A stretch of DNA of 64,000 bases from Phycisphaerae bacterium (GTDB taxonomy: Bacteria > Planctomycetota > Phycisphaerae > UBA1845), in the NCBI GenBank assembly GCA_963666835.2, contig CAXXGO010000001.1:1-64000 (forward strand), written 5' to 3'. Position numbers and translations under genes: made by a program. The notes under the pieces are model-generated. The model was given only the letters and a program-made list of their open reading frames with translations. It ran no database searches and was not told the DNA's origin. The number at the start of each line of letters is the position of its first letter. Position 1 is the first letter of the stretch. Of the stretch, positions 3,834 through 61,810 are shown in pieces.

Positions 3834-3847
3834 AAGTGGGCCACGCA

Positions 3848-5275: not shown

Positions 5276-5307
5276 GACCTACCTCCCTCCATAGAAGACC
5301 GCCCACT

Positions 5308-6008: not shown

Positions 6009-6022
6009 AAGTGGGCCACGCA

Positions 6023-39430: not shown

Positions 39431-39488
39431 GCTCGACTCGTTACGTTCGGATCGTCTGAAGAGGGGGGCGGCTCCGACGCGCAATATC

Positions 39489-43949: not shown

Positions 43950-45543
43950 TGCTCGCTCAAAGAAGATCCTGGCTATTGACTGGGATGTGCGTACGTTGCG
44001 GATCGTCCATGCGCAGCTCGGCAAACGCGGGGCGACCGTGGAACAGGTGTTGGCGGTCCCGCTGGGCAAGGATGTCGACCCCGGCGATCCGGAACAGATG
44101 GGCCGGCACATCCGCCGGGCGCTGGATCAGGAAGGTATCCGCACGCGTCATGCGATGGTCGATGTTCCCCGCGATCAGGCGATTCTCAACACGTTGAACC
44201 TCCCGGTAGCCGTTCCCGAGGGACTCCCCGGAATGGTGGAGATCCAGGTCGCCAAGGAGCTGCCCTTTCCGATCAGCGACGCGGTGATCGATTATGCGGT
44301 CGGAGAGCCGGTTGATGGTTCGCCGACGGCCGAGGTGCTGGTAGCGGCGATTCGCCGCGAGGTTTTGGCCCAGTACGAGGCGACGCTGGTAACGGCCGGT
44401 CTGAGGCCGCTACGGATCGGGTTCCGGCCCTTTGCGGACAAGATCGCGGTTTGCGCGCTGCTAAAGCACGCGATGCCGGAGCGGGTTCTGTTCATCGATG
44501 TTCGGCCGACCCTTTCCGAGATCGATTTCCTGCGGCATGGAGCGTTGGAGTTCTCCCGTGCCGCCCCCGTAGTCATCCCCGAGAACCTTGATGACGGATC
44601 GCGTCTTTCGCTGGTGCGGCCGGCGAGTTCGGGGGAGGTCGGCGACGACGAATCTCCGGCGATTGACGAGCCTCGTGTGTCCGGCGGGGCGCTCGCCGAG
44701 GTGATTCGATCTCTGGTTATCGAGGTCCGCCGGTCGATCGAGGCTTATCGGGCCAGCGATCCCGGGGCGAGAATCGATCATGCGGTGATCGGCGGCGATC
44801 TCGGCATTGAAGAGCCTTTGGCCGAGGCAATCCAGCGCGAGCTGCAGATGACGGCCGAGGTGTTCAACCCGGCCTCGACGTTCGGGTGGGAACCTGACCA
44901 GGGTGCGGCGGCTTCGGCGTATGCGGCCACGTTGGGCATGGTGTTGGCCCAGGCGGATCCGGCTACGCTCCACTTCGATTTCCTTCACCCCAAGAAAGTG
45001 GAATCGGCGGCGAAGAAGCGACTCAAGAAGGCGCCGGTGTTGGCGGCGGCCGTGCTGTTGCTGGCCGCGGCGGGTCCGGTCTTTCTTTATGGGATAACCA
45101 AGGATGATCGCGAGGCGCTGGCGAGCATTGAGAAGCGAATCGCCGAGTTGAAGAGCAATTCCGGAAGTAACAAGAAGTTCCTCAAGTTGGTGGACGACCT
45201 TCGGGACTTCAACGAGCAGTATATCTGGGTGGATGTTCTGGCGGATGCCCTGAGCGTGTTGCCGTCGAATGAAGAGCTGGTCATCAACCACGCGTCGTTC
45301 AACCAGGAGGAGGGCCGCCTGGTCCTCAAGACGCAGACGAAGCGGCGCGAGATTGCCAGCGAGGTGATACGGATGCTGGAGGAGGAGTTTCGCAGACCCG
45401 GCAGTACGCTACCGCGGTTCAAGGTGACCATGCGGTCGCAATCGGAGAAGGACGGAGAGAAGTATCCGTATTCGCAGGATCTGCAGATTATGATTCTGGC
45501 GGACGGTTTGGTGCAAGAGGGGTTGGCCAGTCGTTCGCGGTAG
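43924..45543 (+). CDS. PilM(-PilN)/GspL-like assembly protein
   Basis: ILAIDW, KELPF, EVLVAA actin-like PilM motifs; then DFLHP, one TM, coiled coil and LS.LP periplasmic domain. Confidence 0.8.
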   Translation: MKRISVSVNARSKKILAIDWDVRTLRIVHAQLGKRGATVEQVLAVPLGKDVDPGDPEQMGRHIRRALDQEGIRTRHAMVDVPRDQAILNTLNLPVAVPEGLPGMVEIQVAKELPFPISDAVIDYAVGEPVDGSPTAEVLVAAIRREVLAQYEATLVTAGLRPLRIGFRPFADKIAVCALLKHAMPERVLFIDVRPTLSEIDFLRHGALEFSRAAPVVIPENLDDGSRLSLVRPASSGEVGDDESPAIDEPRVSGGALAEVIRSLVIEVRRSIEAYRASDPGARIDHAVIGGDLGIEEPLAEAIQRELQMTAEVFNPASTFGWEPDQGAAASAYAATLGMVLAQADPATLHFDFLHPKKVESAAKKRLKKAPVLAAAVLLLAAAGPVFLYGITKDDREALASIEKRIAELKSNSGSNKKFLKLVDDLRDFNEQYIWVDVLADALSVLPSNEELVINHASFNQEEGRLVLKTQTKRREIASEVIRMLEEEFRRPGSTLPRFKVTMRSQSEKDGEKYPYSQDLQIMILADGLVQEGLASRSR

Positions 45544-45578
45544 GGTCGGACGCGAGGCGATCGAGTTTGAGGTGATCG

Positions 45579-47129
45579 ATGGATCGGCGTACTAAGATTC
45601 TAGGCGGCGTGTTTCTCGCGATCGTCTGCTACGCGTTGATTGCCAACGTGGCCTATCCGAGCTGGATCAAACCACTCCTCGAGACCGGTGAGCGCGTCGC
45701 CGAGCAGCAGGAAGAACTCGACAAACTGGAGGCCGGGGAAGCTGAAGTCCAGATGGCGAAGCTGGAATACGGCGAGTTACTCGATCGGATGAGTTCGTTT
45801 GACGCGGCCAAAGCGGAGAACGACCTGCGCGAGCGGCTGAACCAGTTAGTGGGAAAGCACGGACTGGAGGAAGTGACCACATCGGGCGGCGGTCGGGTCA
45901 GCCGGTACAAGAAGACCGACTTCGAGACAATGAACCTCTCGCTCAGTGCCACCGGCACTCTGCGTGGGGTGATCGGGTTCCTGAAGGACCTTTCGGAACT
46001 GCCGCACGTGCTCCGGCTGGGTAATGTGGCGATGTTTCCGTCCCGGTCTTCGCGCAAGGGACGGGCGGGTACACAGATTCAACTGCGGGTGCCGCTCGAA
46101 GTGGCCGTGCTTCCGCAGCAGAGGATTCTCGGGAATCTGCTGAAGGACGAGGATCTCAAACAACCCGAGTCATACGTACGGCACGAAGGGCGCAATTACT
46201 CGGAGATCTGGGAGCGGACTCCCTTTACCGAGTTCGTGCCGCCCGAACCGTTGGTCGCCAACGCCGGGCGGACCATCAATGTGGAGTTGAACACGCCGAC
46301 GTCCATGCAGGGTTCTGCGACCGGGGGGGACGGCAACTACACTTACCTCTGGTCTCCGGAGGAGGGGTTGAGTGATCCGAATACCGCGCGCCCGAAGCTC
46401 GACACGTCTACGACGTGGAAGCGGGACTATACCTTGACGGTCACCGACGGGCTGGAGGAGAAGTCGACCTCGACCGTCACGGTGACGATTCGCGAGAAGG
46501 CTCCGGCGGTCACCGAGACGCGTCCGACGGAACCGCCCAAGCCGGTCGGACCGCAGCGCTGGGCGGAAAACAACCGGATGAAGCTGCTTATGGCGCTGAT
46601 GCATAGGGAGGGTGACGTTCGCCTCGACGAGGTGATGGTCTTCCACCTGAAGTCGAAGGAGACGACTTATCACGAGTTGGGGGCCGAGTTCGACGGCGGC
46701 GAGTTGGTCTTTGTGCATCCGCGCGGCGCGATCAGCCGCCGGAAGGACGACTACTTCATCTACCCGCTGGGCTGCACGCTCAATCAGGACATCCGTATGG
46801 AGGAGGCCGGCGACTATCCTGTGCTCCAGGCTGCCGCCTACAGATTGAGTGGCATAGTCCTGGAGACGACCCCGGAAACCGGGGCGGTTTTGGGGCAACC
46901 TGCTTCGACCCCGTCGGGTGGCGGCCCGGAAGAGGAAGAAACGCCCGTGGTCGAGGAGCAGGGCAGTGCCACAACCGAGACTCCGAGCGCGCCTGGGCCC
47001 AAAGTTGCCCCTGCGGCGGCGCCGGCGTCCCGCGATCCTAACGAAGACCGTACTGAGCGAGTAGCCGACAAGCCCAAAAAGAAGAAGAAGAGCAGCCGCC
47101 GTCGGGGCGGGCGAAAGAAGGGGCGTTAG
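45579..47129 (+). CDS. PilO/GspM-like protein fused to PKD/Ig-like and GspC-HR-like domains
   Basis: N-terminal TM + coiled coil + LSATGT...FL.DL; ANAG...YTYLWSP...YTLTVTD; C-terminal beta domain; basic tail. Confidence 0.6.
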   Translation: MDRRTKILGGVFLAIVCYALIANVAYPSWIKPLLETGERVAEQQEELDKLEAGEAEVQMAKLEYGELLDRMSSFDAAKAENDLRERLNQLVGKHGLEEVTTSGGGRVSRYKKTDFETMNLSLSATGTLRGVIGFLKDLSELPHVLRLGNVAMFPSRSSRKGRAGTQIQLRVPLEVAVLPQQRILGNLLKDEDLKQPESYVRHEGRNYSEIWERTPFTEFVPPEPLVANAGRTINVELNTPTSMQGSATGGDGNYTYLWSPEEGLSDPNTARPKLDTSTTWKRDYTLTVTDGLEEKSTSTVTVTIREKAPAVTETRPTEPPKPVGPQRWAENNRMKLLMALMHREGDVRLDEVMVFHLKSKETTYHELGAEFDGGELVFVHPRGAISRRKDDYFIYPLGCTLNQDIRMEEAGDYPVLQAAAYRLSGIVLETTPETGAVLGQPASTPSGGGPEEEETPVVEEQGSATTETPSAPGPKVAPAAAPASRDPNEDRTERVADKPKKKKKSSRRRGGRKKGR

Positions 47130-47255
47130 TCTCGCAGGCAGCGAGGACGAGACTGCCGGCGTCGTATGTTGGCGCCGTTGACAATAGCAGGCGAGGGCCA
47201 TTGAGCCACAGTAAGACCACCCCTGATGTGGGGTGTAGTAAGAGGAGAGGTTGCC

Positions 47256-50200
47256 ATGAACGCACGGCCGAATGACTCAATCCAGCAAACGCTACGTCGT
47301 CTCGGCGTGGGGCTGGCGGTTGTCGTGTTTGGCTTGTCGGCCGCGGTCGGTTATGCGCAGTCTCCGCCGCCGAGCGGAAACGAAAAGACCAACAAGAAGG
47401 CGCCAGGGGCTAAAGAGACTCCGGGCGACAAGACTCCGAGCAGCAAGAGGGCTTCGAGCCCCAGGCGGGCTCCGAAAGCCAAGGAGGACGCCGGCGATAA
47501 GAAACCGTCTCGACGTACGAAGCCTCCGAGTGACAAGAAGACGAGCGATTCCGACGAAAAAGCCGCGGACGGTTCGAAATCCGCCGAGGAAGAAGACTCC
47601 AAGAGTAGCCGACCGGCGCAGCGGACCCACCGTCGTCCCGCCGGTGAGGAGAAAGAAGACACCAAAGAGTCTGATCCGAAAGAGCCGAGCCCGACCGGCC
47701 CGAAGAAGGTCGAGGAGAAGCCGGAGATAGACGCCGACCTGCGGCGACAGGTCGATGCCTTGATAGACTCTCCACCGGAGGATGCCGAGGATTCCGAGAA
47801 GCCTGAACCGCGGAGTCGCGGGTCGAAGCGGGTGAGTCCCTCCGAGGTGGGTCTGGTCAAGCCGGGTATGGGTACGACCACTACAGGCCCTAGACCCGGT
47901 ACGGAAGGGCCGGAACCGAAGGGTCCGACCACGACGCTGGACATTCCGGCACGCGAGGCGAGTGTGCCGGCCGAAGAGCGCACCTACTGGTTCAGCATCA
48001 AGGACGGCAGTTACGAGCAGTTGGTGGAGGGAATCGCCCGTGAGACCGGGTTGGGCGTAATGGGGGAGAGCCCCAAGGACGGGAAGGTCACCTTCGTGAC
48101 CGAAGAGGAGCTTACGTTCGACCAGTTGATCAAGCGCGTTCAGATGGTGCTGTTCAACTACAAGCCGCACGATCCTTACTGGCTCCTGCGCGAAGACACT
48201 CATTTGGAAGTCATTCGGATTACTGACTACTACCGGCGGCTCCCACGGGAGCGGATGTATCCCAGCATTGAAGAGTATCGGGCGGCGAATCTACCCAAGG
48301 ACGAACTGGCCCTGGTGCTCTACACTCCCCAGGCCGGTTCCATCGCGGATCTGACCGTGATTCGCGACTTCATGCCCGACTACGTTCGGGTGACTCCGCT
48401 TGAAGAGCGCAATACGGTCAGCATCTTTGCGTTGTCGCGCGATATTGAAAAGTACATGGACCTGATCCCCATCTTTGTAGGGGACAACGACGATCCGCGG
48501 ACGTTGGAGCTGATTGACGTTGAGCACATCCTCGCCAGCGAGGCGTTGGAGAAGCTGCGCACGTTGATGGACCTGGAGGCGAGCGGCGCGGCGCGGCCCG
48601 CGCCTCGGCCCAAGGCACGCGGGGCGAGCCCTCTTACCGGAGCGGAAGCGCCGGAAGTCAGCGTCGTTCCGGATGATGCCCGCGGGGTGATTATCGTTCG
48701 GGCCATGCCGGACAAGATCCGCGAAATCAAACAGCTGTTGCCATACTTGGATGTGGATACGACGCGAAGCTACGACCCGGTAGTGATTAAGGTCGTACAC
48801 ACAGAGCCGACCGAGCTGGTCGCGACGATTCAGCAGTTGCTAAGCGCGGCGGAGCCGGCTGCCCAGCCGGGGACGCCGACGAGCAAGACGACAACGCGGA
48901 GACGCGACCGGAAGTCGAAGGGTAGCCGACGGGGATCGTCCGGGGCTTCCTCGGTAGTGCTGGACGAGATAACGCTAATGCCGCATCCCAGTGCCCGAGC
49001 GATTATTGTCATGGCTTCGCAGGACGATGTCGTCCGGGTTCGCCATTTTGTGGAGATGTTTGACGTCGAGGACGGCGTCCACAACCACTCCATTGCTCTG
49101 GAGTACATCGACGCCGAAGAGGTGGTTGCGACCATCACCGAGCTGATGGCGGCCGGGACGGCCGGGACGGACACTTTCACGCTGGTGCCGGACCCGAAAG
49201 GGCGGAACATGTGGTTCAGCGGCAGCGAGCACCTTCTGGCCCAGATTGAGGAGATCGTGGCGGCGGTCGACACGGCTGACGACGTCGTGACGCTGCACAT
49301 CCACCATCTGGTCAACCGGACCCCGTCGTTCGTGGTCGGGATCCTCGAGCAGATGGAGAACACCGGAGCGACGGCGACAGGGGGCAAGGCCAATAGGCCG
49401 ACCCGTCGGCGGGGAAGCAGAAAGGCCCCCAAGGCGACGCCGCAAGCGACGCCGGGCAGCAAGTTCACTGCGGACGATGAGCAGGGGCAGCTCTTCGTGC
49501 TTTGTACTGAGCAGGAGTGGGAGGAGTACCTGGTCATAATCGAGCAGCTCGAGAGTGAGACGATCAGCGAGGTGCCGGTGCTGATCACGGTGGAGAACCT
49601 GACTCCGGACGAGGCGATCAACAAGCTGGGGACGCTCTTGAGCGATCAACAGCTTGCCAAAATGCGCTTCGAGACGACCGAAGCCGAGATTATCGTCATG
49701 GGGGCGAGCGAATTGGACTTGGCCTCGATTCGGAGCCTGCTGGCGGAACTGGATCGCCCGCTGGACATCGTGCAACGCACCTTTGAGATCCTCTATGCGG
49801 ATCCTGCGGAGCTGGTCTCGGCGTTGAACACGCTGGTCAGCGATGAAGCAGGCGGCAACTCCGCCGCCAAGCCGGGCCCGCCGCGTAAGGGCGCAAGGGC
49901 GACGCGTCCGGTAGCTTCTCGGGCAAGCTCGTCCGAACTGACGATTGTGGAGCTCGGTAAGTTCCTGATTGTGCGGACTACCCCGGAGAAGATGGAACGC
50001 GTCGCCGAGTTCATTACCGAGTTCGACATTGAGGAAGATAAGCGAACGATCCGGGTGTATGACGACTTCCCGATCGGGACGGATCTCGAAGATCTGACTG
50101 ACACATTAACGTCACTTATGCCGGGCGATGCCCCGGAGACGGCTAAGCCTAAGGGTCGGGCCTCGCGTGCGACGACCACTGGAGCCGGCGGTTTGCGGAT

Positions 50201-53200
50201 CGTGCCGCGCCCGGCGCTGGGCAAGCTTATCGTGATCGCCACGCCGGAGGAGTTTGTGGAAGTCGAGAAACTCCTCGATGTGCTCCGCAGTGAGGATCAG
50301 CTCGGGCCGACCGAGATGGACTTCGTTAACGTCGAGTACGCCGATCCCGCCGAAGTGGTGGAGGCGATAGAGCCGCTGTTGGACCTACGGATCGAGCAGA
50401 TGATCCGCACCGGAGAACTCTCGGCCGCCTATGGCGGCGGCGGGGAGGCGACTCCCAAGATCAGTAGACACCGGGGCAAGAACGTGCCGGCGCCGGCGGC
50501 GGCGGCGAGCGGAGGAGGCGATTATCACCTCGCGGCCGATGAGCGGATGAGCCGGATTGTCGTTTTCGGACCCGGTCCGATCGTAGCGGCCGTGCGGGAT
50601 CTGGTACGTCAATTCGACGTACCGGGCGATACCCCGGACGCCGTGGACATTGCCTTCGTTCCGGTGGAGCACGGCGACCCGGAAGAGCTGGTCGAGATGG
50701 TCGAGCCTTTCCTGAGTATGCGGGTAGACGAGTTGGTTGCGGCGGGGTCACTGAGTGCCGGTACGGTGGAAGATCCTTCCGCGACGACGCCGAAAAGGGG
50801 CGTTAAGGGACCCAAACGCGGCACCACTCCGAGAAGCAAGAGTGGCGACGACAAGCGCTATCACCTGGCTCCGGACGAGCGGAATAACCGAATTGTAGTC
50901 GCCGCGCCGCAGATCGTGATTGAGGAGGCTACCCGGCTCATAGGGGAATTCGATCGCCCCGATGCCGAAACGGACATCACGTTCGTGACCGTAGAACTGC
51001 AGAACGCTGATCCGGACGAAATGGTCAAGGCTATCAAGGAGATGCTCGGCAGCGGCGGGCGAGCCGGGACTCGCCGGGCTAAAGGGGCGAAGGCTGCTGC
51101 GACGGCCGGCTCGACCGATACGGATAAGCTCACCGTCGCGGCTGCTCCGGGCGGAAGCGCGCTGATCCTACGTGGTCCGACGGAGGATGTTGAAACGGCC
51201 ACCGAGTGGATCGAGCACCTGGACAACATGTCGGCCAGCGGGCGGGAGATCAAGACTTATGAGATCCGCCGGGCGGACCTGCGGAGGCTGGTGGATCTGG
51301 TTATGTACGACGTGGACTCCGGCGGGTCCAAGCCTGCCGGAAAGAAACGCGCGGCGCCCAGGGGTAAGTCGCGCGGTGTTGCCGAAGCCCCGGTGGAGGA
51401 CGAGTTTGAGACGACGATCACCCGATCGGGGGCGGATCTCTACATCCAGGCGGATCTGATCGCGCGAACGATGGTGGTTTCCGCTCCGCCGATCAAGCTG
51501 GCCCGGATCGACGAGATCGTCGCCCAGATGGACACTGAAGAAGAGTCGGGCATAACGGGGAAAGAAGTTCCGAAGTTCTTCTACGAGCTCAAGCACGTAG
51601 ATGCTATCGACGCCCTCTTCGATTTGGAGGCGGTTCTGGATGTCATGTGGGAGCCGTCCACCGATCTGCCGAAGGTCGATTACGCCCCCTTTGGCGAGAC
51701 TCTGATCATCAAGTACCCCGACGAGCGGCGTTTCCCGGAGATCGAGGCTCTGATCGTCAAGTACGTCGATAAGGTGCCGCCGGAAGATCTCGTATTGGAC
51801 CGCGAGGCGTTCACACCGCCCACGGGGATGAGTCCGCGTGATACGTACCTGTGGCTGAAGATGAACTACCCGGATTACGAGTTCGAGCTGATCGACATCT
51901 CGACGATCAAAGAAAGTGACTATCCGATCACGGAAGTCCAGCCGGCGACACGGCAGGCGCAGGCTAACCCGTGTGTCCTGCCTTTGGCATTCAAGCAGAT
52001 GGCCGATGCCGCGCTGGCGATTGCTACCGGGCAAACCGAGCCGGACCAGCCCCAGGATGATCCACAGGAGGATCCCCCGAGCGATCGTGAGGAGGCCGAG
52101 GACGAGCCGGCCCCCGAGGATGACGACGGCGGGTATGAAGATTCGGACGACTATGAGGAATCCTACGAGGAACCGGTTGGCGGAGAAGCCGGCGCGCCTG
52201 AAGGTGCCAGGCCGGCCGGCATGACGGAAGCCGAGGAGCGGAGCAGGATTCGAGCGCTCCTCGATGAGAAGGAGAAACGGCGCACCGCGAAGCCGACCGG
52301 CGAGAAGATCAAGGTCTTCATTGACGAGTCCTCGGGTGGGGTCTTTTTAGAAGGCAAGGCGGGGATTCTCAAAGACGCCGACGAGTGGATGGACAAACTC
52401 AAGAAGGAAATAGAGACCCTCCCGACCATGCCCGACATCCGGGTCTTCCAGGTCAAGCACATTGACGTATACGCAGCCCAGGAAGTCCTCAACGAGATGT
52501 TCAACGCGACGCAATCGCAGCGGCAGGCGGTTACCGCAGCGCAACGCCGCGCCCAGCAGCAACAGCAGGCGGCCCAACGGCGGGCGCAACAGCAGAGAAC
52601 GGCGAAAGGACAGGAAGAGGAGCAGGATAAGGACGGACGGCAATCCCGGCGCGGACAGCAGACCCAGCAACAACAGGTCCCACAGCTCCCGGCCGAGTCG
52701 GTGCGCATCTTCCCGAACCCGCGCGATCGGACCCTGATCGTCCGAGCGGAGTCGACCCAGTTTGCGGTGATCAAGAAGCTGCTGGCCACGATCGATCGAC
52801 CGCAACCGATCGAGAGCATCCACCGGGTGTTCCAGTTAAAGAAGCTTAACGCCACCGAAGTCGAGGAACTGTTGCGAGACTGGCTCGGGCTTGATGAGCA
52901 GCAGACATCGCAGCGGCGGACTTCATCGAGCTCAAACCGGGCGAGAAACGCACGTAGCGGTGCTGCTCAAACACGGCAGACCCGAAGCACGGGCGCCGCC
53001 GGGCGGCTGCCCAAGACTTTGATGCAACACTCGCCGACGGCCGGGGAGCTCGGCGTCGACCCGCGCGACATCAAGATCAGCAGCAATCCGGAAACGAACA
53101 CCGTTTTGGCAATGGCTCCGAAGGTGGCGATCGAGTACATCGCCGACCTGATCGAGGATCTGGAGAGCCAAGAGATCGAGGAGCGTATTTGGAAGACTTA

Positions 53201-56200
53201 CGAACTCGAATACGCCGCGGTGGACGAAGTGGTCGAGTATCTGTCGAGCCGTTTCGGGGATTCCACCGGCTCCAGCACCGGCAAGAAGAACTCCAAAGGA
53301 CGCGGAAGTACGACGACCGCGACAACTGCTACGGGCGGGCTGCTGAATACGGCCAGCTTCGTAGCTTTTCCCACGCTCAATCTGATTTCGGCACAAGCGG
53401 TAGAAGAGCAGATTGCGGAGATTGATGAGCTGATCGCTCAGCTCGATGTGCCCAACGCGGGCGAGGTGTTCCAGTCGGTCGCTCTAACGTATGCCGATGC
53501 CGCCTTGGTGGCCGACACGCTTACGGCGATGTTTGGCAGCACGGGCTCCGCGGGCGGGGGGCGTAAGACCGGCGGAAGGAACCGCAGCGCAAACACCGCG
53601 ACAGCCGCTGCCGGGCCGACCTTCATCGGAGAAGAGGGCACCAAGATTGTTTTCTTCGCCGCGCCGGAGCGCATGCACGAGCGGATTCACGAGGTCATCC
53701 GGGAACTCGAGGAGCAATCCAAAGGCAGCAAGACGGTCCGCACCATCATACTGGCTCACGCCAAGCCCAGCGTGGTCGCCGAGGCTATCCAAGAGGCCTA
53801 CGGCGGAACCAGCGGCGGGCGAGGTGGCCGGGGCGGCAGGGGCCACCAGGCGACCACGACGGGTTTTACGGTAACGCCGTCGGACGATTCGAAGCGGATC
53901 TTCGTCATGGCCGACGACACGACCTTCGGCGAGATCAAGTCGCTGGCCGAGATGCTCGACGTGCCGCCGGAGATCGGGTTCGACTTCCGAATCTACAAAC
54001 TTGAGTACGCCAGCGCCAGAATAGTCTACGAGACCCTGAACAAGCTGGTTACGGATTTCGTGCGGGCTAAAGGGCGCGAAGGCGGGCAGATCGAAGCTTT
54101 TGCCGTCGAGGTCGACGACAAGGCCAACGCTCTGGTCGTGCTGGGTGGGCAGGTGGTCTTCGACTTCGTCGAGAATGCTTTGGTCAACATCGACACCCCG
54201 GCGAACGCGGCGAGCCCGCCGGGCTTCTTGATGGTGCCGCTGAAGACCGCGGACGCTACCGAGGTCGCCCAGAGCATCACCCGGCTCTGGAACCAGAAGA
54301 CCATGCCGCCGGGAGAGCTTCCTCCACAGGCGGAGGCGAACCGGCTCTTGAACGTTCTGATTGTCCGGGGTACGCAAGATCAGATTGACGAGATTCGACG
54401 CGATATCATCGACCCGCTGGATAGCTACACGCCTCCGGCGCTGCTCGCCGAGACGATTACGCTTAAGTATGCCCAAGCCGAAGAGGTGGCGGACGCGATC
54501 AGCCGGGTCTTCGAAGATACGCGCGAGGCGTACCGAACCATGGCCGGCGGCGGTGGCAAGCAGCCCCCGGCGCTGGAAATGACCGTAGCGATTACGCCCG
54601 ACGCCGCCACGAACCAGGTCATCGTGCAGGCGAGCGAAACGAACATGGGCAAGATCAAGGCCCGCATCGCCGAGCTGGATCGCGAGGACATCGCCAGCCG
54701 GTCGGCGACCTCGACCAAGGTTTACACTCTCGATACCGCCGATCCGAACGCCGTGGTGAACATGATCCGGGAGTGGACCCGCACCCAGCAGCAGCGGGCC
54801 GGGCGCAACCAGACCCCGACAGCGCGGGACACCATCGTGGCAGTGGCCGAACCGACCACGCAGTCCGTGGTGGTGACCGCCAGTGAGATGAACCACCGGC
54901 TGATTCAGGACGTCATCGACGGATTGGACAACGAAACCGTCGCAGCGCGGGAGCGCCAGCGCCATGTCATGCCGTTGCGGTTTGCCGCGGCCGGCGAGGT
55001 CGCCAACCAGTTGACCCAAGTGTTCAGGAACGTGACCCGGCGACGCGGAGATACGGGCCCGGCATTCGTGGCCGACACTATCGGCAATACCGTCGTTGTG
55101 AGTGTCAACGCCGAGGAGTATGCCGAGGTTGAACAGCTCGTCACCGCGCTCGACCAGGAGCCGGGGATTGATACCCAGCGCATTACGAAGGTCTACCCGC
55201 TGATCTATGCCGATCCGGCAAGCGTCAACACGGTTGTGGTGAATATGTTCCGCTCCACGGGGCGGGCGCAGACCGGCCCGCTGGACCAGGTCGCCTCTTC
55301 ACCCGAAACGGCGACGCGGGCGGTGGTGGTAACCGCTTCGACCAAGAACCAGGAAGTGGTGGCCGCGATGATCGAGGCGTTGGACAAGGAGTCCACGTTC
55401 ACCAAGGTCATGCACACGTACCAGCTTCAGAAGGCTAATGCCGAGGAAGTTGCTACTGCCTTGCAGGAAGTCTATCGCGCGCGGCGCTCGAACATCCGGG
55501 GCGATACTCCGGTGCAGATCACGCCCGAGGCGGCCACGAACTCGCTGCTGATTCTGGCGAACCAGACCGAAATGGACGAGCTGTCCGGGTTGATCAAATC
55601 GCTGGATGTCGAGCCGATGGCCGAGCGCCAGCGACAGGTTCGCAGCTTCCCTCTCGCCGACGCCGACCCATGGAGCGTGCAGGAAGCAATCAACAAGCTG
55701 TTCCGCGGAAGCGGGAGAAACGAGCGCGATCAGGTCACCGCGGTAGCCGAATGGGGTTCGCAGTCGGTGATCGTATCGGCCTCGCCCGAGAACATGGTCC
55801 GCATCGAAGAGCTGGTGGCCCAGTTCGATGTTGAAGGAGCGGCCGAGCAGGCCGTCCACGTGATCGCCCTGGAGAGCACCGATGCCGAGTCGGTGTCGCA
55901 GACCCTCAACGAGATTTTCGTGAAGTCGGCCCCGCGGCAGCAGGGCAATCAAGAGGTGCCGATCTCGATCGCGGCGCTGCGCGGCTCGAAGGCGGTCGTG
56001 GTTAAGTGCAAAGATGATGACTTCGCCCGAATCCAGGCCGCTGTGGCCGAGTTGGATCGCGAAGACGCGGTCATTGGCGAAGAGGTCCGCGTAGTGACCT
56101 TGCTGTACAGCAACGCGGAGGAAGTCAAGACGGCCGTGCAGGAGTATCTGCGCAAGCCCGGTGGCAGCGCGGGACGCGGCACCGCCGAGTTGGCCGGGGA

Positions 56201-56963
56201 TGTCCGGCTGGCCGTACTGGACCAGACCAACGCTGTGGTCGTCAGCGGGGATCTGACCCGGGTCGAGCACATCGAGAAGCTGATCACCGAGATGGACATC
56301 GCGGGCGAGAAGGGCTCGATTCCGCAGATCATTGTTCTGCAATACCTGAACGTCGGGCGGGTTCTGCCCAGCCTCGAAGAGATGTTCGAGGAACGTCGGG
56401 GCGGCGGACGCTCGGGGCAGCAGCCGCCGGTGATTGTGGCGAACGAGAACCTCAATGCCCTGGTTGTCCGCGGCAGTCCTACGGATGTGCGAGCGATTGA
56501 GGCGATTGTCGCGAAGCTCGATACGGAAGAGGCCGGGGACAAGCCCAACTACCGCGTGATCCGGGTCGCTACCGGGATCAATGTCGAGGACTTAGCCGAG
56601 AAGATCGAAACGACAATCAACGAAGGCGTGGCCGCCCAGCAAGGTTCCTCCGGCGGGCGCAGCGGAAGGCAGATGGCCGGAATCACGGTGACTTCGGATC
56701 GACGGACTAACTCGTTGATGGTGGCCGGGACGCCGACGCTCTTCGACGAAGCAGAGCAACTGGCTCGGGCGATGGAAGAAATGGGCCCCGCGGGCGGTTC
56801 GCAAATGCGGATCATCAAACTGCGCGGCACGCCTTCGGACGAGGTGATCCGATTGATCGAGCAGTTGAAGGGCGAGGAGAGCGGAAGCAGCAAGAAGTCC
56901 GGATCGTCGCGTCGGCGGAGTAGTAGCGGCGGTTCGCGAAGTGGCGGCAGCCGGGGGCGCTAA
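47256..56963 (+). CDS. Giant secretin N-domain repeat protein (~3235 aa) lacking the secretin pore domain
   Basis: AGGAGAGG RBS; signal peptide ending AVGYA; N0-like domain; about 31 NolW/secretin-N repeats by manual count; no PQV/IP.LGD.P motifs. Confidence 0.88.
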   Translation: MNARPNDSIQQTLRRLGVGLAVVVFGLSAAVGYAQSPPPSGNEKTNKKAPGAKETPGDKTPSSKRASSPRRAPKAKEDAGDKKPSRRTKPPSDKKTSDSDEKAADGSKSAEEEDSKSSRPAQRTHRRPAGEEKEDTKESDPKEPSPTGPKKVEEKPEIDADLRRQVDALIDSPPEDAEDSEKPEPRSRGSKRVSPSEVGLVKPGMGTTTTGPRPGTEGPEPKGPTTTLDIPAREASVPAEERTYWFSIKDGSYEQLVEGIARETGLGVMGESPKDGKVTFVTEEELTFDQLIKRVQMVLFNYKPHDPYWLLREDTHLEVIRITDYYRRLPRERMYPSIEEYRAANLPKDELALVLYTPQAGSIADLTVIRDFMPDYVRVTPLEERNTVSIFALSRDIEKYMDLIPIFVGDNDDPRTLELIDVEHILASEALEKLRTLMDLEASGAARPAPRPKARGASPLTGAEAPEVSVVPDDARGVIIVRAMPDKIREIKQLLPYLDVDTTRSYDPVVIKVVHTEPTELVATIQQLLSAAEPAAQPGTPTSKTTTRRRDRKSKGSRRGSSGASSVVLDEITLMPHPSARAIIVMASQDDVVRVRHFVEMFDVEDGVHNHSIALEYIDAEEVVATITELMAAGTAGTDTFTLVPDPKGRNMWFSGSEHLLAQIEEIVAAVDTADDVVTLHIHHLVNRTPSFVVGILEQMENTGATATGGKANRPTRRRGSRKAPKATPQATPGSKFTADDEQGQLFVLCTEQEWEEYLVIIEQLESETISEVPVLITVENLTPDEAINKLGTLLSDQQLAKMRFETTEAEIIVMGASELDLASIRSLLAELDRPLDIVQRTFEILYADPAELVSALNTLVSDEAGGNSAAKPGPPRKGARATRPVASRASSSELTIVELGKFLIVRTTPEKMERVAEFITEFDIEEDKRTIRVYDDFPIGTDLEDLTDTLTSLMPGDAPETAKPKGRASRATTTGAGGLRIVPRPALGKLIVIATPEEFVEVEKLLDVLRSEDQLGPTEMDFVNVEYADPAEVVEAIEPLLDLRIEQMIRTGELSAAYGGGGEATPKISRHRGKNVPAPAAAASGGGDYHLAADERMSRIVVFGPGPIVAAVRDLVRQFDVPGDTPDAVDIAFVPVEHGDPEELVEMVEPFLSMRVDELVAAGSLSAGTVEDPSATTPKRGVKGPKRGTTPRSKSGDDKRYHLAPDERNNRIVVAAPQIVIEEATRLIGEFDRPDAETDITFVTVELQNADPDEMVKAIKEMLGSGGRAGTRRAKGAKAAATAGSTDTDKLTVAAAPGGSALILRGPTEDVETATEWIEHLDNMSASGREIKTYEIRRADLRRLVDLVMYDVDSGGSKPAGKKRAAPRGKSRGVAEAPVEDEFETTITRSGADLYIQADLIARTMVVSAPPIKLARIDEIVAQMDTEEESGITGKEVPKFFYELKHVDAIDALFDLEAVLDVMWEPSTDLPKVDYAPFGETLIIKYPDERRFPEIEALIVKYVDKVPPEDLVLDREAFTPPTGMSPRDTYLWLKMNYPDYEFELIDISTIKESDYPITEVQPATRQAQANPCVLPLAFKQMADAALAIATGQTEPDQPQDDPQEDPPSDREEAEDEPAPEDDDGGYEDSDDYEESYEEPVGGEAGAPEGARPAGMTEAEERSRIRALLDEKEKRRTAKPTGEKIKVFIDESSGGVFLEGKAGILKDADEWMDKLKKEIETLPTMPDIRVFQVKHIDVYAAQEVLNEMFNATQSQRQAVTAAQRRAQQQQQAAQRRAQQQRTAKGQEEEQDKDGRQSRRGQQTQQQQVPQLPAESVRIFPNPRDRTLIVRAESTQFAVIKKLLATIDRPQPIESIHRVFQLKKLNATEVEELLRDWLGLDEQQTSQRRTSSSSNRARNARSGAAQTRQTRSTGAAGRLPKTLMQHSPTAGELGVDPRDIKISSNPETNTVLAMAPKVAIEYIADLIEDLESQEIEERIWKTYELEYAAVDEVVEYLSSRFGDSTGSSTGKKNSKGRGSTTTATTATGGLLNTASFVAFPTLNLISAQAVEEQIAEIDELIAQLDVPNAGEVFQSVALTYADAALVADTLTAMFGSTGSAGGGRKTGGRNRSANTATAAAGPTFIGEEGTKIVFFAAPERMHERIHEVIRELEEQSKGSKTVRTIILAHAKPSVVAEAIQEAYGGTSGGRGGRGGRGHQATTTGFTVTPSDDSKRIFVMADDTTFGEIKSLAEMLDVPPEIGFDFRIYKLEYASARIVYETLNKLVTDFVRAKGREGGQIEAFAVEVDDKANALVVLGGQVVFDFVENALVNIDTPANAASPPGFLMVPLKTADATEVAQSITRLWNQKTMPPGELPPQAEANRLLNVLIVRGTQDQIDEIRRDIIDPLDSYTPPALLAETITLKYAQAEEVADAISRVFEDTREAYRTMAGGGGKQPPALEMTVAITPDAATNQVIVQASETNMGKIKARIAELDREDIASRSATSTKVYTLDTADPNAVVNMIREWTRTQQQRAGRNQTPTARDTIVAVAEPTTQSVVVTASEMNHRLIQDVIDGLDNETVAARERQRHVMPLRFAAAGEVANQLTQVFRNVTRRRGDTGPAFVADTIGNTVVVSVNAEEYAEVEQLVTALDQEPGIDTQRITKVYPLIYADPASVNTVVVNMFRSTGRAQTGPLDQVASSPETATRAVVVTASTKNQEVVAAMIEALDKESTFTKVMHTYQLQKANAEEVATALQEVYRARRSNIRGDTPVQITPEAATNSLLILANQTEMDELSGLIKSLDVEPMAERQRQVRSFPLADADPWSVQEAINKLFRGSGRNERDQVTAVAEWGSQSVIVSASPENMVRIEELVAQFDVEGAAEQAVHVIALESTDAESVSQTLNEIFVKSAPRQQGNQEVPISIAALRGSKAVVVKCKDDDFARIQAAVAELDREDAVIGEEVRVVTLLYSNAEEVKTAVQEYLRKPGGSAGRGTAELAGDVRLAVLDQTNAVVVSGDLTRVEHIEKLITEMDIAGEKGSIPQIIVLQYLNVGRVLPSLEEMFEERRGGGRSGQQPPVIVANENLNALVVRGSPTDVRAIEAIVAKLDTEEAGDKPNYRVIRVATGINVEDLAEKIETTINEGVAAQQGSSGGRSGRQMAGITVTSDRRTNSLMVAGTPTLFDEAEQLARAMEEMGPAGGSQMRIIKLRGTPSDEVIRLIEQLKGEESGSSKKSGSSRRRSSSGGSRSGGSRGR

Positions 56964-57172
56964 CCCGGTTTCGCAGAGTGAGGTAAGGCATGTTGGATGG
57001 CCGAGTTCTCAGAGTCCGCCGAGCGGCGGGCACCCGCGTCGAGCGGATCCGGCTCATCAGAGCCGCCCGGGAGGCAGAAGCACGGATGGAGCCGACCGGT
57101 CTGCCGGAAAGCCTGATGAGTGGAAGCAAGCGGTCAGGGCGAGGATGCCGGACCGTAGAGAGGTTATAGATC

Positions 57173-60100
57173 ATGCGCGCGAGCAATAAGGTGTTGACTA
57201 TGCGGGCACACGTTTCAAGGCCGTCGGTCTGGTGGAGTGTTGTCGTTCTGGCGGTGGGTCTCATCGCCGCCCCTCCGGTCGTTAGAGCTGAGAACGGGAC
57301 CAACCCACCGAAGAAGCCGGCCGCCCCTGCGGCGGAGTCGGACGAACAGCGCGAACCGGATGCCGTCGATATGGGCGAGCTGCCGGCCGTGCAGGGCATC
57401 GACGACGTGACACTGTCCGGGGCGGAGCTGGACTATGAGATGGTCGGAGACCAGATCATCCTCAAGGGCGCCCAGCAGGACCTGGACTTGTTGGAAGCGT
57501 TGATCGGCACGTTGGAAGGTGCCCGAGAGCAGAAGGTCCTGCGGATCGTCACCGTAAAGGCCAAGGATGCCAATGAGATCGCCCGGACGGTGGAGCAGCC
57601 TCTGCGCGACATCTTCTACGAGCCTAACCAGCGCACGGAGGATCAGCTTTCGGTCACGGCCCTGTCGTCGAACATCTTATTGGTCGCGGCACTGCCCGAT
57701 CAGATCGACTTCGTGATAAGCGTGGTGGAGAGCGCCGACGCCGTACCGGACGACATCGGTAAGGTCGAGCAGCTCGTGTTCGCGGTCAAGCACCGCAAGG
57801 CCAGCGACGTGGCGGATCAACTGCGGGAGATGATCACGAAACTGCGTCAAAAGCAGGGTTCCAGCGGCGCCGAGGACGAGTTCCAGATCGTCCCGAACAA
57901 CGCCAACAACACCATTGTCGTTCTGGCTCCCGAGTCGGAGCGTAAGAAGATCCAGACCTTGCTGGACGGGATCGACGTAGAGCCGGTCAGCGGCTGGGGC
58001 GAGGTCAAACTGACGTTCTTCCCGCTGTTGCACTCGAAGTCCAACGAGTTGAGCCAAGTGATCGAGGATCTCCTGGAGTCTCAGCAGGATCGCGAGGCGG
58101 CCGAGGAGACGGTCTATCGCCTGCTCATCAGCAAGGCCATGCCCGACGGGCAACGCATCGAGCTTCCCCCGATCGACCTGCAAAAGCCGACCCGGGTGAT
58201 TCCCGACGAGGGGACGAACAGTCTGATCGTAGCCACGGTGGAAGAGAACGTCGGACCGATGGGCGAGCTGATCCGCTTGCTCGATAACGTGGCGATTGCC
58301 GAGGACGTGGAAGTCAAGCTGTTTCCGCTCCGATTCGCGGATGCCGAGACGGTGCGGGATCTGCTGCAGGATATGTTCGAGAACGCCACTGAGCTGACCG
58401 AGGACCCCGACGGCAGCGGAGAGAACGCCGTGCCGCCCGGAGAGGTTGGTAGGGCTTTAGTCTACAACCTGGGAACGGCCGCGGATACGCGGACGAACAC
58501 GCTGCTGGTGACCGGCCGGCCGGAGCAGGTTCAACTGGCCGAGCGAATCGTCAAGGACCTGGATCGCCCCGTAACGGCGTTGAAGTTCCCGCTCCGGCTC
58601 ATCCATCTGGAACACGTCGACGTGTCGCAGATCAGCCAGCTTATCCGGGATCTGCTCGACCAGCGGTTCGAGGCGCTGGAGGCTACGGGGGGCGGGAAAT
58701 CCGCAACGGAACTCGAGCGCGTGTTCCTCAACGTCGATCTGCGGAGCAATTCGCTGATCGTCGCGGCGTCGGAAGAGAACTACCAGGAGGTGGTTGAGAT
58801 CGCCCGGCGCCTCGATACCCGACCGGACCAGGTGTTCGACCAGATTCGGATAATCGAGTGCCAGCGGCTGGCCGCATTGGACCTGAAAGAGAAGATCGAG
58901 GAACTCTGGCAGCGCAAGTCGAGTTTGCGTCAGGACGCGGAATTGCCGGAAGATTCGCCGATCGTCGTTGCGGACGAGCGGAGTAACTCGCTGGTGGTGG
59001 CGTCGAACCGGGAGGATTTCGAAGAGATCAAGAAGCTGGTCGAGACGCTCGAGAAGCGGCCCTTGATCGACGATACCCGCCTGTTCAACCTCGAGCACAC
59101 CGATGCCATTGTTCTGGCAGAGATGCTCGATGAACTGTTCCAGGGCATGGAAGGCACTACGGAGGCGTTCAAAGCTCCGACCATTATCCCCGACGCACGC
59201 TCCAACGCTCTGGTGGTCGCAGCGACCCGGGACAGTATGGAGCGGGTGGAGGAGATCGTCGCCCGGCTCGACGTCGAAGCCGGGCCCATGACCGCGATCT
59301 TCAAGGTGTATCCGCTCAAGCACGGCTCGGCGAACAAGCTGGCTATGCGCATGCAGGAGCTGTTCGACTCTCGCGCCGAAGGGCAGGAGTTGAACCGCAC
59401 GCCGATCGTCGTCCTGGCGGATGAGTCGTCGAACAGCCTGGTGACCAGCGCTTCGCGCGACGATCACCGGGTGATGGCGGACCTGCTCAGTCTGCTGGAT
59501 CGCCCGTCCAGTATCGCCCGGCAGTTCGAGATCTTCCCGCTGAAGCTGGCCAGGGCTACGTCGGTCAAGGAACGTCTCGATACCCTGTTCGAGGCGCAAG
59601 CGGAAGGGACCGAGGGCAGCGCCGTGGCGATCGCCGCAGAGGCGGACGAGCGTACGAACTCGATCATCGTGTGGGCCTCGCCGGCGGAGATGGAGAACGT
59701 CGGGGAGGTCATCGGGCGGTTGGATAAGGCAAAGCCGGTCCGGGAGATGGCCGTCAGACTTATCCAGCTCAAGCAGGCGCTCGCCGAAGATTTCGCCACG
59801 CTGCTCGAAGAGTCCATCATCGGGGAGAACGCCGGCGAAGACGATGAGCCGGCCGTGATTCTGAAGCAGAAGTACACTGACAAGCACGGCAACCAGGCCG
59901 AACGCACGCTGCTTCGACAGGACATCTCGGTCAAGGCGGACCCGCGGACCAACTCACTGCTGGTTACCGCGCCGGCGGACAGCCTGGCCATGCTCGAGGA
60001 GATGATAAAAGACTTCGACCGGGTGAATCCGATTCGGTCGGAGATTCGCCTCTTCCCGCTGCTCAACAGCGACGCCGAGAGTATGGTCGATCAGCTCACC

Positions 60101-61810
60101 GACATTTTCAGCTCGGAGGGCGGCGAGGATGGGGAGACCAGGACCCAGTTGCTGTTCGGGGCGGGAATGGAGGATCTGGACTTCGCCAGCGTCGGGCAGG
60201 AGCTGCGCCTGGCGGCGGATCAAAGAACCAACACGCTTATCGCCGCCGGTGCGGAGGTCGACCTGCGCATGGTCGAGGACTTGGTGTATGCCCTCGATGC
60301 GCAGGAGGCGGAGGACCGGGTGGTGGAGGTCTACCACGCGAAGTTCCGCGATGGTCAGGATCTTTCCAACGCCATCCAGGGGTTCGTTCAGCAAGAGCAG
60401 GACGTGCTGGGCGAGCTAGACGACGAAGAGGCCCGGATGCGCCGCATGGAGCGGCAGGTTTCGGTCGAGAGTCTCGGCAACGAGGAGGACGGCAGCAGCA
60501 GCCTTATTGTCGGAATGAGCCGCCGCGAGCACCAACGCACGATGGAGATGATCGCCCAGCTCGATAGGCCGGAACCGCAGGTTATGATTCGCGTGTTGAT
60601 CGCCGAAGTGACTTTGAACGACAGTGCCGAGCTGGGAGTCGAGATCGCAGGGCAGGATTTGAACTTCTCCGACAGCGCCGTGCTCGGTCCCAACGGGATC
60701 GTGCAAGGACCGGACTTCGATTGGGTTGCGGGTACGGACTTGGGCTCGGCCGGGCTCGGTTTGGGTGGCTTCAACTTCACCCTGACCGGCGAGGACTTCA
60801 GTTTTCTGTTCCACGCTCTGCAGCAGAACAACCGGACGGAGATTCTGTCGCGGCCGCTGCTCGTCGTCCGCAACGGTGAGGAGGGTATGATCAAGGTCGC
60901 CGACGAAGTGCCGATTGTGGAATCCTCGCGATTGAGTGACACGGGGCAGACTCAGTCGACGATCGGGCGGGAAGACGTTGGTATCGTCCTGACGGCCACC
61001 CCGCACATCAGTCCGGACGGCTACGTTTCGATCCAGATCAAGCAGGAGATTTCGAACATTGCCGGTGAAGATGTGCAACTTACCGAGGGTGTAAGTTCGC
61101 CGATCTTCCAGTCGCGCGAGGTCGAGACCGACGTGACGGTCCGAGATGGTGAAACGGTGATCATTGGTGGGTTGATTCAGCACCGCAAGTCGGATGGGGA
61201 GAACAAGATCCCGATTCTCGGTGATCTGCCGCTGTTGGGCCCTCTGTTCCGTTCGACCAGTACGTCAGACGACCGGTCGGAGTTGATGGTCGTCCTGACG
61301 GTCGACATTCTGCGGACCGATGAGGATATGCACCGGATCTCCACCGAGCAGCGCGAAATGTACGATTTCAGTCCGTGGATGAGCCAGAGCCGGCTTATGG
61401 AAGGACTCCGGATCCTCCCGGAAGACACGAAGCTCGGCCCGACCGAGGATTCCCCGTCGAAAACCGAGCCGCGCTTACGCACTCGGCCGGATGAACGCCA
61501 ACTTTACGGTCCGAAGCCGCGGGTCTACGGCCCGACCATCAAGAGTCCGGCCGCCAAGACGAGTACGGCGAACGGTCCGGTCTACGGACCTGCGGTCAAA
61601 CGTTCGACGCGCGGTCCGGATGCGACTCCGCGGTCGGACTCACCGGCGCCCGTCAAGCAACCTCTGGCGTTGGCGGATACGGCGCTGGTGCCGGTTTTCG
61701 GTCCGGCTTGTCTGCAACCTCCGGAATCTAACGCGGAAGTCGAGCCGGTCTACGGTTCGACCCTGCGAAGCAGAACGGTAAAGCCCGTAATGGACGCTCC
61801 GCTGGAGTAA
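57173..61810 (+). CDS. gspD: Secretin (GspD-like) with ~12 N-domain repeats
   Basis: Signal peptide (start may be 57200); repeated D.R.N.LIV units; pore domain PQVMIRVLIAEV, ILSRP, DVGIVL.ATPHI, GETVIIGGL, KIPILGDLPLLGPLF. Confidence 0.93.
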   Translation: MRASNKVLTMRAHVSRPSVWWSVVVLAVGLIAAPPVVRAENGTNPPKKPAAPAAESDEQREPDAVDMGELPAVQGIDDVTLSGAELDYEMVGDQIILKGAQQDLDLLEALIGTLEGAREQKVLRIVTVKAKDANEIARTVEQPLRDIFYEPNQRTEDQLSVTALSSNILLVAALPDQIDFVISVVESADAVPDDIGKVEQLVFAVKHRKASDVADQLREMITKLRQKQGSSGAEDEFQIVPNNANNTIVVLAPESERKKIQTLLDGIDVEPVSGWGEVKLTFFPLLHSKSNELSQVIEDLLESQQDREAAEETVYRLLISKAMPDGQRIELPPIDLQKPTRVIPDEGTNSLIVATVEENVGPMGELIRLLDNVAIAEDVEVKLFPLRFADAETVRDLLQDMFENATELTEDPDGSGENAVPPGEVGRALVYNLGTAADTRTNTLLVTGRPEQVQLAERIVKDLDRPVTALKFPLRLIHLEHVDVSQISQLIRDLLDQRFEALEATGGGKSATELERVFLNVDLRSNSLIVAASEENYQEVVEIARRLDTRPDQVFDQIRIIECQRLAALDLKEKIEELWQRKSSLRQDAELPEDSPIVVADERSNSLVVASNREDFEEIKKLVETLEKRPLIDDTRLFNLEHTDAIVLAEMLDELFQGMEGTTEAFKAPTIIPDARSNALVVAATRDSMERVEEIVARLDVEAGPMTAIFKVYPLKHGSANKLAMRMQELFDSRAEGQELNRTPIVVLADESSNSLVTSASRDDHRVMADLLSLLDRPSSIARQFEIFPLKLARATSVKERLDTLFEAQAEGTEGSAVAIAAEADERTNSIIVWASPAEMENVGEVIGRLDKAKPVREMAVRLIQLKQALAEDFATLLEESIIGENAGEDDEPAVILKQKYTDKHGNQAERTLLRQDISVKADPRTNSLLVTAPADSLAMLEEMIKDFDRVNPIRSEIRLFPLLNSDAESMVDQLTDIFSSEGGEDGETRTQLLFGAGMEDLDFASVGQELRLAADQRTNTLIAAGAEVDLRMVEDLVYALDAQEAEDRVVEVYHAKFRDGQDLSNAIQGFVQQEQDVLGELDDEEARMRRMERQVSVESLGNEEDGSSSLIVGMSRREHQRTMEMIAQLDRPEPQVMIRVLIAEVTLNDSAELGVEIAGQDLNFSDSAVLGPNGIVQGPDFDWVAGTDLGSAGLGLGGFNFTLTGEDFSFLFHALQQNNRTEILSRPLLVVRNGEEGMIKVADEVPIVESSRLSDTGQTQSTIGREDVGIVLTATPHISPDGYVSIQIKQEISNIAGEDVQLTEGVSSPIFQSREVETDVTVRDGETVIIGGLIQHRKSDGENKIPILGDLPLLGPLFRSTSTSDDRSELMVVLTVDILRTDEDMHRISTEQREMYDFSPWMSQSRLMEGLRILPEDTKLGPTEDSPSKTEPRLRTRPDERQLYGPKPRVYGPTIKSPAAKTSTANGPVYGPAVKRSTRGPDATPRSDSPAPVKQPLALADTALVPVFGPACLQPPESNAEVEPVYGSTLRSRTVKPVMDAPLE

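Follow-up and report, generated by a model that had tools for sequence, protein, structure and literature searches.

In a 64,000-nt stretch of DNA from a Phycisphaerae bacterium (UBA1845; assembly GCA_963666835.2, contig CAXXGO010000001.1, positions 1–64,000, plus strand; this whole stretch is called the window below), we found two adjacent genes that appear to encode a single, very long type II secretion secretin in two parts. The first gene encodes a giant protein that ends with what seems to be the first half of an N domain, and the second encodes a pore-bearing secretin whose mature form begins with the other half. It was considered probable, at roughly 0.7, that the two genes are indeed parts of one such secretin and that their products are joined by this N domain, complemented in trans. 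Secretins form the gates in the outer membrane that serve type II and type III secretion, type IV pili and the export of filamentous phages, and their N-domain rings are regarded as parts of one chain.

Inspection of the open reading frame (ORF), Pfam matches and matches to our own repeat hidden Markov model (HMM) showed that the giant protein (3245 residues; 47226–56963 (+)) consists of a signal peptide, a low-complexity region, an N0 domain, at least 26 complete Secretin_N domains, a half domain and a basic tail. Pfam detected 22 Secretin_N stretches in it (E 1.2e-202), and the repeat HMM, which has 73 positions and was iterated on the giant protein and the secretin of the window, gave 29 matches, 26 of them complete. 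By the same three methods, the secretin (1545 residues; 57173–61810 (+)) was found to consist of a signal peptide, an acidic leader, a half domain, 11 complete N domains, the Secretin domain and a Pro-rich C-terminus; Pfam detected 10 Secretin_N stretches together with the Secretin pore domain, and the repeat HMM gave 12 matches, 11 of them complete. The pore domain lies at residues 1215–1381 (60815–61315 (+)) and matched PF00263 over profile positions 1–169 of 169 (E 3.9e-48). The pair thus has the PF00263 pore and the Secretin_N domains (22 + 10 by Pfam, 29 + 12 by the repeat HMM) of a GspD-type secretin.

The last complete N domain of the giant protein (residues 3117–3185; 56574–56780 (+)) was matched by positions 6–72 of the 73 HMM positions with 47.3 bits, and by Pfam Secretin_N with E 3e-9 when searched as a fragment. 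A short Gly/Pro linker then leads to the first half domain, here called half A, which consists of strand β1 and helix α1 (Q3193–G3216; 56802–56873 (+)) and was recognized from profile alignment with hhalign, from conservation and from the outgroup described below. It is followed by a basic tail of 29 residues rich in Ser, Gly and Arg (56874–56960 (+); net charge +6) and by the stop codon TAA (56961–56963 (+)). Judging from its charge in relatives and from its composition, which resembles that of the giant protein's loops, the tail is probably the first part of a former variable loop. A spacer of 209 nt (56964–57172) separates the two genes. The frame of the secretin begins a single codon ahead of the ATG at 57173 and differs from that of the giant gene, and a Shine–Dalgarno-like GAGAGG was observed a few bases upstream of this ATG. 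A scan of the spacer showed no consensus promoter or terminator, where the consensus may not suit this phylum, and the 82-residue and 194-residue ORFs that overlap it had no Pfam match. The first 39 residues of the secretin (57173–57289 (+)) resemble a signal peptide by inspection of the translation, with a basic stretch, a hydrophobic stretch and VRA at the end; the secretin N-termini of relatives have the same layout, with AQ/AxA-type sites at the end. Residues 40–79 form an acidic leader (57290–57409 (+); net charge –7 by charge count), which is probably the second part of the former loop. Half B, recognized by hhalign and conservation, follows at residues 80–117 (57410–57523 (+)); it starts with TLSG, consists of strands β2 and β3 and helix α2, and is the first ordered part of the mature secretin. 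The first complete N domain of the secretin comes next, at residues 127–190 (57551–57742 (+)), with 25.0 bits in the repeat HMM and E 6.4e-5 for Pfam Secretin_N on the fragment.

The sequence-only reading, an earlier note made from the letters of this DNA, had proposed that each repeat runs β-α, variable loop, β-β-α, and that the break between the two proteins falls at the variable loop. For the first N domain of the giant protein, the AlphaFold2 (AF2) model predicted the order strand 122–127, helix 134–143, strands 149–153 and 158–164 and helix 165–178, and in the 37 complete repeats the insertions (mean 6.6 residues, maximum 45) were located almost exclusively behind position 35 of the 73 HMM positions; the proposed layout was therefore borne out. 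The alignment of half A mapped to columns 1–21 of the N-repeat profile (E 7.7e-4) and that of half B to columns 29–77 (E 3.1e-5), which, together with the clustered insertions, bears out the position of the break. The giant protein does end with the first half and a basic tail, at coordinates that were exact to the base, and the mature secretin does start with the second half ahead of its first full N domain, as the same reading had stated. It was confirmed at the level of sequence that half A and half B are complementary parts of one N domain, cut at the variable α1–β2 loop. The variable loops of the two proteins differ in charge. In the N domains of the giant protein, they are basic with a high content of Gly, Arg, Thr and Ala (26 loops, 593 residues: G 17%, R 13%, D+E 7%), and in those of the secretin, they are acidic. 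The loops of each protein thus resemble its own remnant, the tail in one case and the leader in the other, which is consistent with the uncut junction domain of the outgroup.

A search for related loci with a single 130-residue fragment found none, and one with an alignment of the secretin domain found relatives, of which the closest named one is a Phycisphaerae metagenome-assembled genome (MAG) with 66% identity over the pore domain. From a search of 40 relatives, for which the junction regions were fetched, 33 upstream ends (27 split pairs and 6 fused frames) and 31 secretin starts were obtained. Left out of the counts were L012, with its upstream end outside the locus, and L015–L020, whose loci stop short of the junction; for half B, also L033, L037 and L040, where the best match lay elsewhere or the region was not fetched (half B of L033 is visible by eye). 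All 33 aligned upstream ends showed the strand-helix half followed by a Ser/Gly/Arg tail, and all 31 aligned secretin starts showed a strand-strand-helix half led by LSG, across 11 families of the order (Phycisphaerae). A module made of half B and the first complete domain was found in 149 of 151 sampled genomes of the order at E ≤1e-12. The check proposed in the sequence-only reading, that orthologues should keep the same half/half junction, was therefore passed. The mean pairwise identity was 28% for half A and 36% for half B, compared with 30–36% for the matching parts of the two neighbouring complete domains, so that both halves are conserved as well as the matching parts of complete domains. 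In the half B alignment (A2), L16, G18 and G34 are nearly invariant, the first two of which lie in the lead-in. The net charge of the tail was positive in 27 of 27 split relatives.

Frame lengths around the half-B module were compared using the best match per genome in 144 listed genomes. Frames of at most 2215 residues, corresponding to the split state, were found in 74 of 74 listed genomes of six families (f1, 31; f3, 7; f5, 4; f7, 29; f8, 1; f11, 2). Among the matches listed, frames of at least 3449 residues, corresponding to the fused state, were found in 58 genomes of four other families (f2, 29/32; f4, 2/2; f6, 25/31; f9, 2/4). The same matches included 12 short frames within these fused families, several of them at or near contig ends. 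Three short-frame f6 genomes were considered as independent splits and rejected, as all three frames are affected by contig ends: one is fused at the junction and cut by the contig end, one is open through the linker to the contig end, and in one the contig ends 91 nt upstream of half B. The split in the window could also be explained as an assembly or sequencing artefact, or as a recent pseudogenisation of a single gene, for which it may be said that the genome is a draft of 7 contigs and that many relatives have a single frame. Against this stand the stop codon, the change of frame, the 209-nt spacer, the GAGAGG and the full signal-peptide-like start, the split state in the 74 genomes above, and the grouping of all 33 split rows in one clade of the gene tree described below. 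By the conservation of the split state, this explanation is refuted for practical purposes. The earlier argument that a spacer of ~210 nt and a new signal peptide speak against a frameshift has held accordingly.

In the fused frames examined (L021–L026 and L167), half A is followed by the basic tail, a hydrophobic stretch, an AQ/AxA-like site, a Pro/Thr/Ala-rich linker and half B, with 100–235 residues between the halves and a hydrophobic run of 10–20 residues. In L168 the frame is open through the linker and the hydrophobic stretch is visible, and the contig ends before half A. The internal element of L022 is a textbook signal peptide with Met codons, and that of L025 is degenerate. This signal-peptide-like element could serve as an internal start, could be cleaved by signal peptidase, or could be a relic. 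In L061, a contig of a named Phycisphaerae MAG, the junction and the secretin were observed in consecutive frames (32–2578, 2582–4102, 4032–5366 and 5670–6848), which suggests frameshifts or further splits.

An uncut form of the junction domain was identified outside the group. Junction profiles were made of the last complete domain plus half A, and of half B plus the first complete domain. In the single-gene giants L046, L047 and L050, the best matches to the two profiles abut, and one complete N domain lies between the same two flanking domains (HMM positions 2–72, 38–44 bits). Its loop is a basic Ser/Arg/Gly/Pro stretch of 30–45 residues. Half A is homologous to the first part of this intact domain, which, as far as sequences can tell, is the uncut form of the junction domain and settles which half is which. 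Several Planctomycetota giants found via the pore domain, these three among them, are open across the whole 7-kb upstream flank and gave no clear match to the half-domain HMMs. Frames of more than 2550 residues, limited only by the fetched flank, were observed for the secretins of L046, L047, L050, L052, L055, L056, L059 and L073. These giants come from other Planctomycetota and from contigs labelled Verrucomicrobiota or Anaerolineales; giant single-chain secretins seem to be widespread beyond the order.

A quick maximum-likelihood gene tree was calculated from the C-terminal 700 residues of 51 rows and rooted on 5 giants with no junction. The junction-bearing proteins formed one clade, with a support of 100 in the Shimodaira–Hasegawa-like approximate likelihood ratio test (SH-aLRT). 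The fused f2 and fused f6 groups and the fused L022 branch at the base of this clade, and all 33 split rows fell in one clade together with L022 (SH-aLRT 89); the basal forks lacked resolution. Because all split rows share one clade with L022, the tree favours a single fission, which would have taken place after the loop had expanded. Several re-fusions could also account for the pattern, given the state of the basal forks, the textbook signal peptide of L022 and the fact that gene fusion is generally an easier event than fission. Under either order of events, half A and half B descend from one domain. There is thus good support for a gene fission at the variable loop within an N domain, and the earlier suggestion of fission of an ancestral gene was upheld by the intact outgroup domain and by the N0 domain on the giant protein described below.

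To assess the fold in cis, AF2 was applied to the unaltered natural fused junction of L022 (177 residues) with a 6-sequence alignment. The model showed a strand at 10–15 and a helix at 21–36 for half A, and strands at 141–146 and 149–154 and a helix at 156–172 for half B. The predicted local distance difference test score (pLDDT) was ~87 in each half, below 50 in the linker and 59.5 overall. Over residues 7–175, the best match of the model was GspD N1 (3ezj_A 101–168; Z 9.9, root-mean-square deviation (rmsd) 2.3, 68 residues), followed by XcpQ (5mp2_A, Z 9.7) and EscC (3gr5, Z 9.5), with KH-type folds ranking below. The ordered part of the model amounts to only ~68 residues, so that the match to GspD N1 requires both halves. 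In this model of a fused homologue, the β-α-β-β-α fold was thus made up of half A together with half B.

Another way to account for the junction is that each half finds its complement elsewhere than in the partner half, for instance in a helix or strand of half B's own leader, by pairing across different protomers, or in a GspC-like or pilotin-like periplasmic factor. The secretin lead-in provides some grounds for this: a short strand-like DDVTLSG is present in the lead-in of the window's secretin, the nearly invariant L16 and G18 lie in this segment, and an extra predicted amphipathic helix, xxLLxxIDPxxL, stands directly before half B in 10 of the 14 closest relatives (L002–L004, L006, L008–L014). 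The window's secretin lacks this helix, as do L005, L007 and most other families; in the outgroup proteins both halves belong to one domain, and in the cis model half A is paired with half B and not with the lead-in. Completion by another partner was therefore considered quite improbable.

The pairing of the separate chains was predicted with the window's own sequences (57 and 42 residues, alignments A2 and A1) and three controls. The interface score ipSAE was 0.33, compared with 0.11 for the best control, and the runs agreed in at least 91% of the contacts. In a benchmark of 157 solved complexes and 215 mismatched pairs, 116 of the complexes and 2 of the pairs reached the mark; with values of ≤0.60, only 18 of the complexes did so, as did both of the passing mismatches. 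Unless the guess was a likely one from the outset, a weak pass is wrong more often than not. Because of the conservation of the halves, the ancestral domain and the cis model, the pairing in trans was judged to be likely beforehand.

Several results weigh against complementation in trans. The score of 0.33 was graded as weak support, and the pLDDT was only ~61 for both chains (partner ≥61). The cis model of L022 had an overall predicted template modelling score (pTM) of 0.39 from an alignment of just 6 sequences; it suggests that the halves can form a domain when tethered, and says nothing on the binding of separate chains. Pfam gave no Secretin_N match for the isolated halves (56 and 49 residues), and when a flanking domain was added, only that domain was matched; our own HMM scored neither half at a domain E ≤1. 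When fused sequences were mixed with separate halves, MAFFT aligned β3-α2 of half B with β1-α1 of half A, a sign that the N domain is internally pseudo-repetitive; hhalign, the position of half A and the outgroup are the grounds for assigning it as the first part. The xxLLxxIDPxxL helix described above might stand in for α1. The net charge of the leader was negative in 16 of 24 split relatives and positive in 8, so that charge matching between tail and leader is not general.

Two candidates were set aside in the course of this work. The alignment that mixed fused sequences with separate halves was discarded as misaligned, and six fused sequences were folded alone instead. Matching of a basic tail with an acidic leader was rejected as a general rule, the leaders being negative only in 16 of 24 relatives, and was kept as a tendency.

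The weak trans score (0.33 versus 0.11) and the invisibility of the halves to Pfam would also fit a junction at which the split inside the domain is real and no domain is rebuilt in trans. The halves would then be tolerated remnants or flexible ends, and the two proteins, if joined, would be held by ordinary ring-on-ring stacking of complete N domains. In solved secretins, N-domain rings do stack without sharing domains. Remnants would be expected to decay, yet both halves are conserved across the order like parts of whole domains; fused relatives retain both halves, and AF2 folds them into one domain. A lone β-α or β-β-α unit would, moreover, probably expose a hydrophobic core. We therefore regard the remnant explanation as unlikely, and a junction domain shared by the two chains remains the preferred reading. 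Of the inter-chain fold complementation and shared ring that the sequence-only reading had put forward, conservation and the fold predicted in cis (L022, Z 9.9 to GspD N1) speak in favour, and docking in trans drew only the weak score given above. Neither of the two outcomes that this reading had named as refuting it was observed.

Additional evidence that the two proteins belong together came from the N-terminal part of the giant protein. Residues 240–440 are its sole non-repeat globular region, which was matched once per genome in 37 of 41 relatives. When this region was searched against PDB sequences, nothing was found at E ≤10, and Pfam gave no N0 family match. The AF2 model of the region, made with a 30-sequence alignment, had a mean pLDDT of 87.6. 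Residues ~252–332 of the protein (47979–48221 (+)) could be superposed on GspD N0 (3ezj_A 3–80) with Z 10.8, rmsd 1.9 and 74 aligned residues (VIA-align), and the whole model on PulD N0-N1 (6hcg_A 27–235) with Z 11.7, rmsd 8.3 and 174 aligned residues. The N0 domain was thus revealed by the fold search only and not by sequence methods. It sits on the giant protein, and the pore-bearing secretin, which begins with half an N domain, is without N0. Neither chain carries N0 and pore together; therefore, only the pair gives the canonical order, in which a signal peptide is followed by N0, the N domains and the pore.

Two further stretches of the giant protein were noted. Between the signal peptide and N0, residues ~45–240 (47350–47950) form a low-complexity region of ~200 residues rich in Lys, Pro, Ser, Glu and Asp; similar leaders rich in Lys, Pro and Ala are carried by L013, L014, L035 and L038, but on the secretin. 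The repeat array is interrupted at residues ~1438–1740 (~51537–52445), where ~300 residues have no N-domain match and include a strongly acidic low-complexity run of Asp, Glu, Pro and Tyr and a stretch resembling a divergent small domain.

The most likely course of events and assembly can be outlined as follows. An ancestral single gene was probably cut inside the variable α1–β2 loop of one N domain, the first protein keeping β1-α1 and the basic first part of the loop, and the second mature protein the acidic second part and β2-β3-α2. The giant protein and the secretin would each be exported by their own signal peptide. The secretin would be inserted in the outer membrane, its 11 N rings extending into the periplasm, and the giant protein, with ~26–29 ring-forming N domains, would form a long stack nearest the inner membrane, with its N0 turned towards the inner-membrane platform as in GspD. 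The two chains would pair one to one in the periplasm, where the C-terminal strand and helix of the giant protein would complete the sheet and the core of the secretin's N-terminal half. One shared ring might thereby join the two stacks end to end into a continuous channel of ~38 N rings. In the window's pair, the oppositely charged loop remnants (+6/–7) may help docking. A more far-reaching version, which we consider doubtful, is that all members of the order build a periplasmic conduit of ~40 rings from two chains locked by a complemented N domain. In the fused families, the internal signal-like stretch would be cleaved by signal peptidase or would act as an internal start, so that a proteolytic or translational split would have preceded the genetic one, which would only have fixed it, and the joint would be the docking step coupling the inner-membrane and outer-membrane stacks.

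GspD-type secretins are ring oligomers of 12–15 subunits in the outer membrane. Compared with GspD, PulD and XcpQ, in which N0-N1-N2-N3-secretin-S form one polypeptide, the pair described here is alike in its pore, its Secretin_N rings, the GspD-type fold of its N0 and its GspF/G/J/K/L/M-like neighbours. It differs in having ~38 N domains instead of 3 and in being encoded by two genes cut inside an N domain; N0 and pore are on different chains, and there is no GspE in the cluster. Completion of an incomplete domain by a segment of another chain is familiar from chaperone–usher pili, where donor-strand complementation gives a very stable joint. In that case, like subunits of a fibre are joined by a single strand that completes an Ig-like fold, whereas here the KH-like N domain would be completed by a strand and a helix, and the partners are two different proteins derived from one gene.

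The extra rings of Thermus thermophilus PilQ are reportedly linked to the width of the envelope. This protein resembles the present pair in having more N-type rings than usual and in coming from a bacterium with an unusual envelope, but it is a single chain of 757 residues with far fewer rings that serves the type IV pilus and DNA uptake (PMC5745081). Separate ORFs for the N-terminal and C-terminal secretin parts have been described for Rhc-type type III systems (rhcC1/rhcC2 and hrcIIC1/hrcIIC2) as a family trait whose significance is unexplained in the passages cited (PMC3574062, PMC3973906). Two ORFs, here separated by a stop codon and a 209-nt spacer, are common to both cases. The Rhc-type ORFs, according to these passages, belong to type III systems and are not adjacent, lying in different regions or with other genes between them, whereas the genes described here are adjacent and of type II. 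The passages cited are silent on a cut inside a domain or on fold complementation (PMC3574062, PMC3973906), and the two cases are set side by side by description only. As the neighbours in the window are type II secretion and pseudopilus genes and not an Rhc-type type III cluster, the window's pair is an analogue of the Rhc split secretin and not a member of that group.

No giant or split planctomycete secretins and no fold complementation of secretins were found in the literature searched, which left most subscription journals outside. Split secretin genes as such are already known from the rhizobial type III systems; what the present pair adds is the cut inside a domain in a giant type II secretin. 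With ~4800 residues and ~38 N domains in total, the secretin hints at a conduit that exceeds by far the length of those studied to date, and the complemented junction would offer a concrete way for two halves of an envelope-spanning machine to be joined. The cut at the same loop in 74 listed genomes, the fused relatives and the intact ancestral domain together offer a natural series in which the fission of a gene within a fold can be studied. The findings may shed light on the unexplained split secretins of the rhizobial systems and are of interest for secretion systems and protein evolution.

Both genes lie directly downstream of a type II secretion gene cluster on the same strand, to which the pair belongs as judged by Pfam matches of the neighbours. 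The cluster (37572–47129 (+)) encodes GspF, GspG, GspJ- and GspK-like pseudopilins, a PilM/GspL-like protein and a GspM-like protein, and the E-values were 8.2e-56 for T2SSF, 9.2e-24 for T2SSG, 3.2e-10 for T2SSK_1st, 3.4e-19 for PilM_2 and 2.6e-4 for T2SSM_b. In a family search of the whole genome, no T2SSE ATPase was found in the cluster at 37.5–62 kb; 12 T2SSE-family matches were found elsewhere in the genome (contigs C1 and C6). The nearest one within the window is at 8161–8982, in an open frame of 401 residues ~29 kb upstream of GspF. The GspM-like protein (45579–47129 (+); 516 residues) matched K319L-like_PKD (E 7.4e-5) in addition to T2SSM_b and exceeds the usual GspM in length and complexity. 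Immediately ahead of the secretion genes, on their upstream side, an RTX protein of 977 residues with calcium-binding repeats (33652–36585 (+); HemolysinCabind, E 1.3e-9) was observed, which may be a secretion substrate or may be unrelated.

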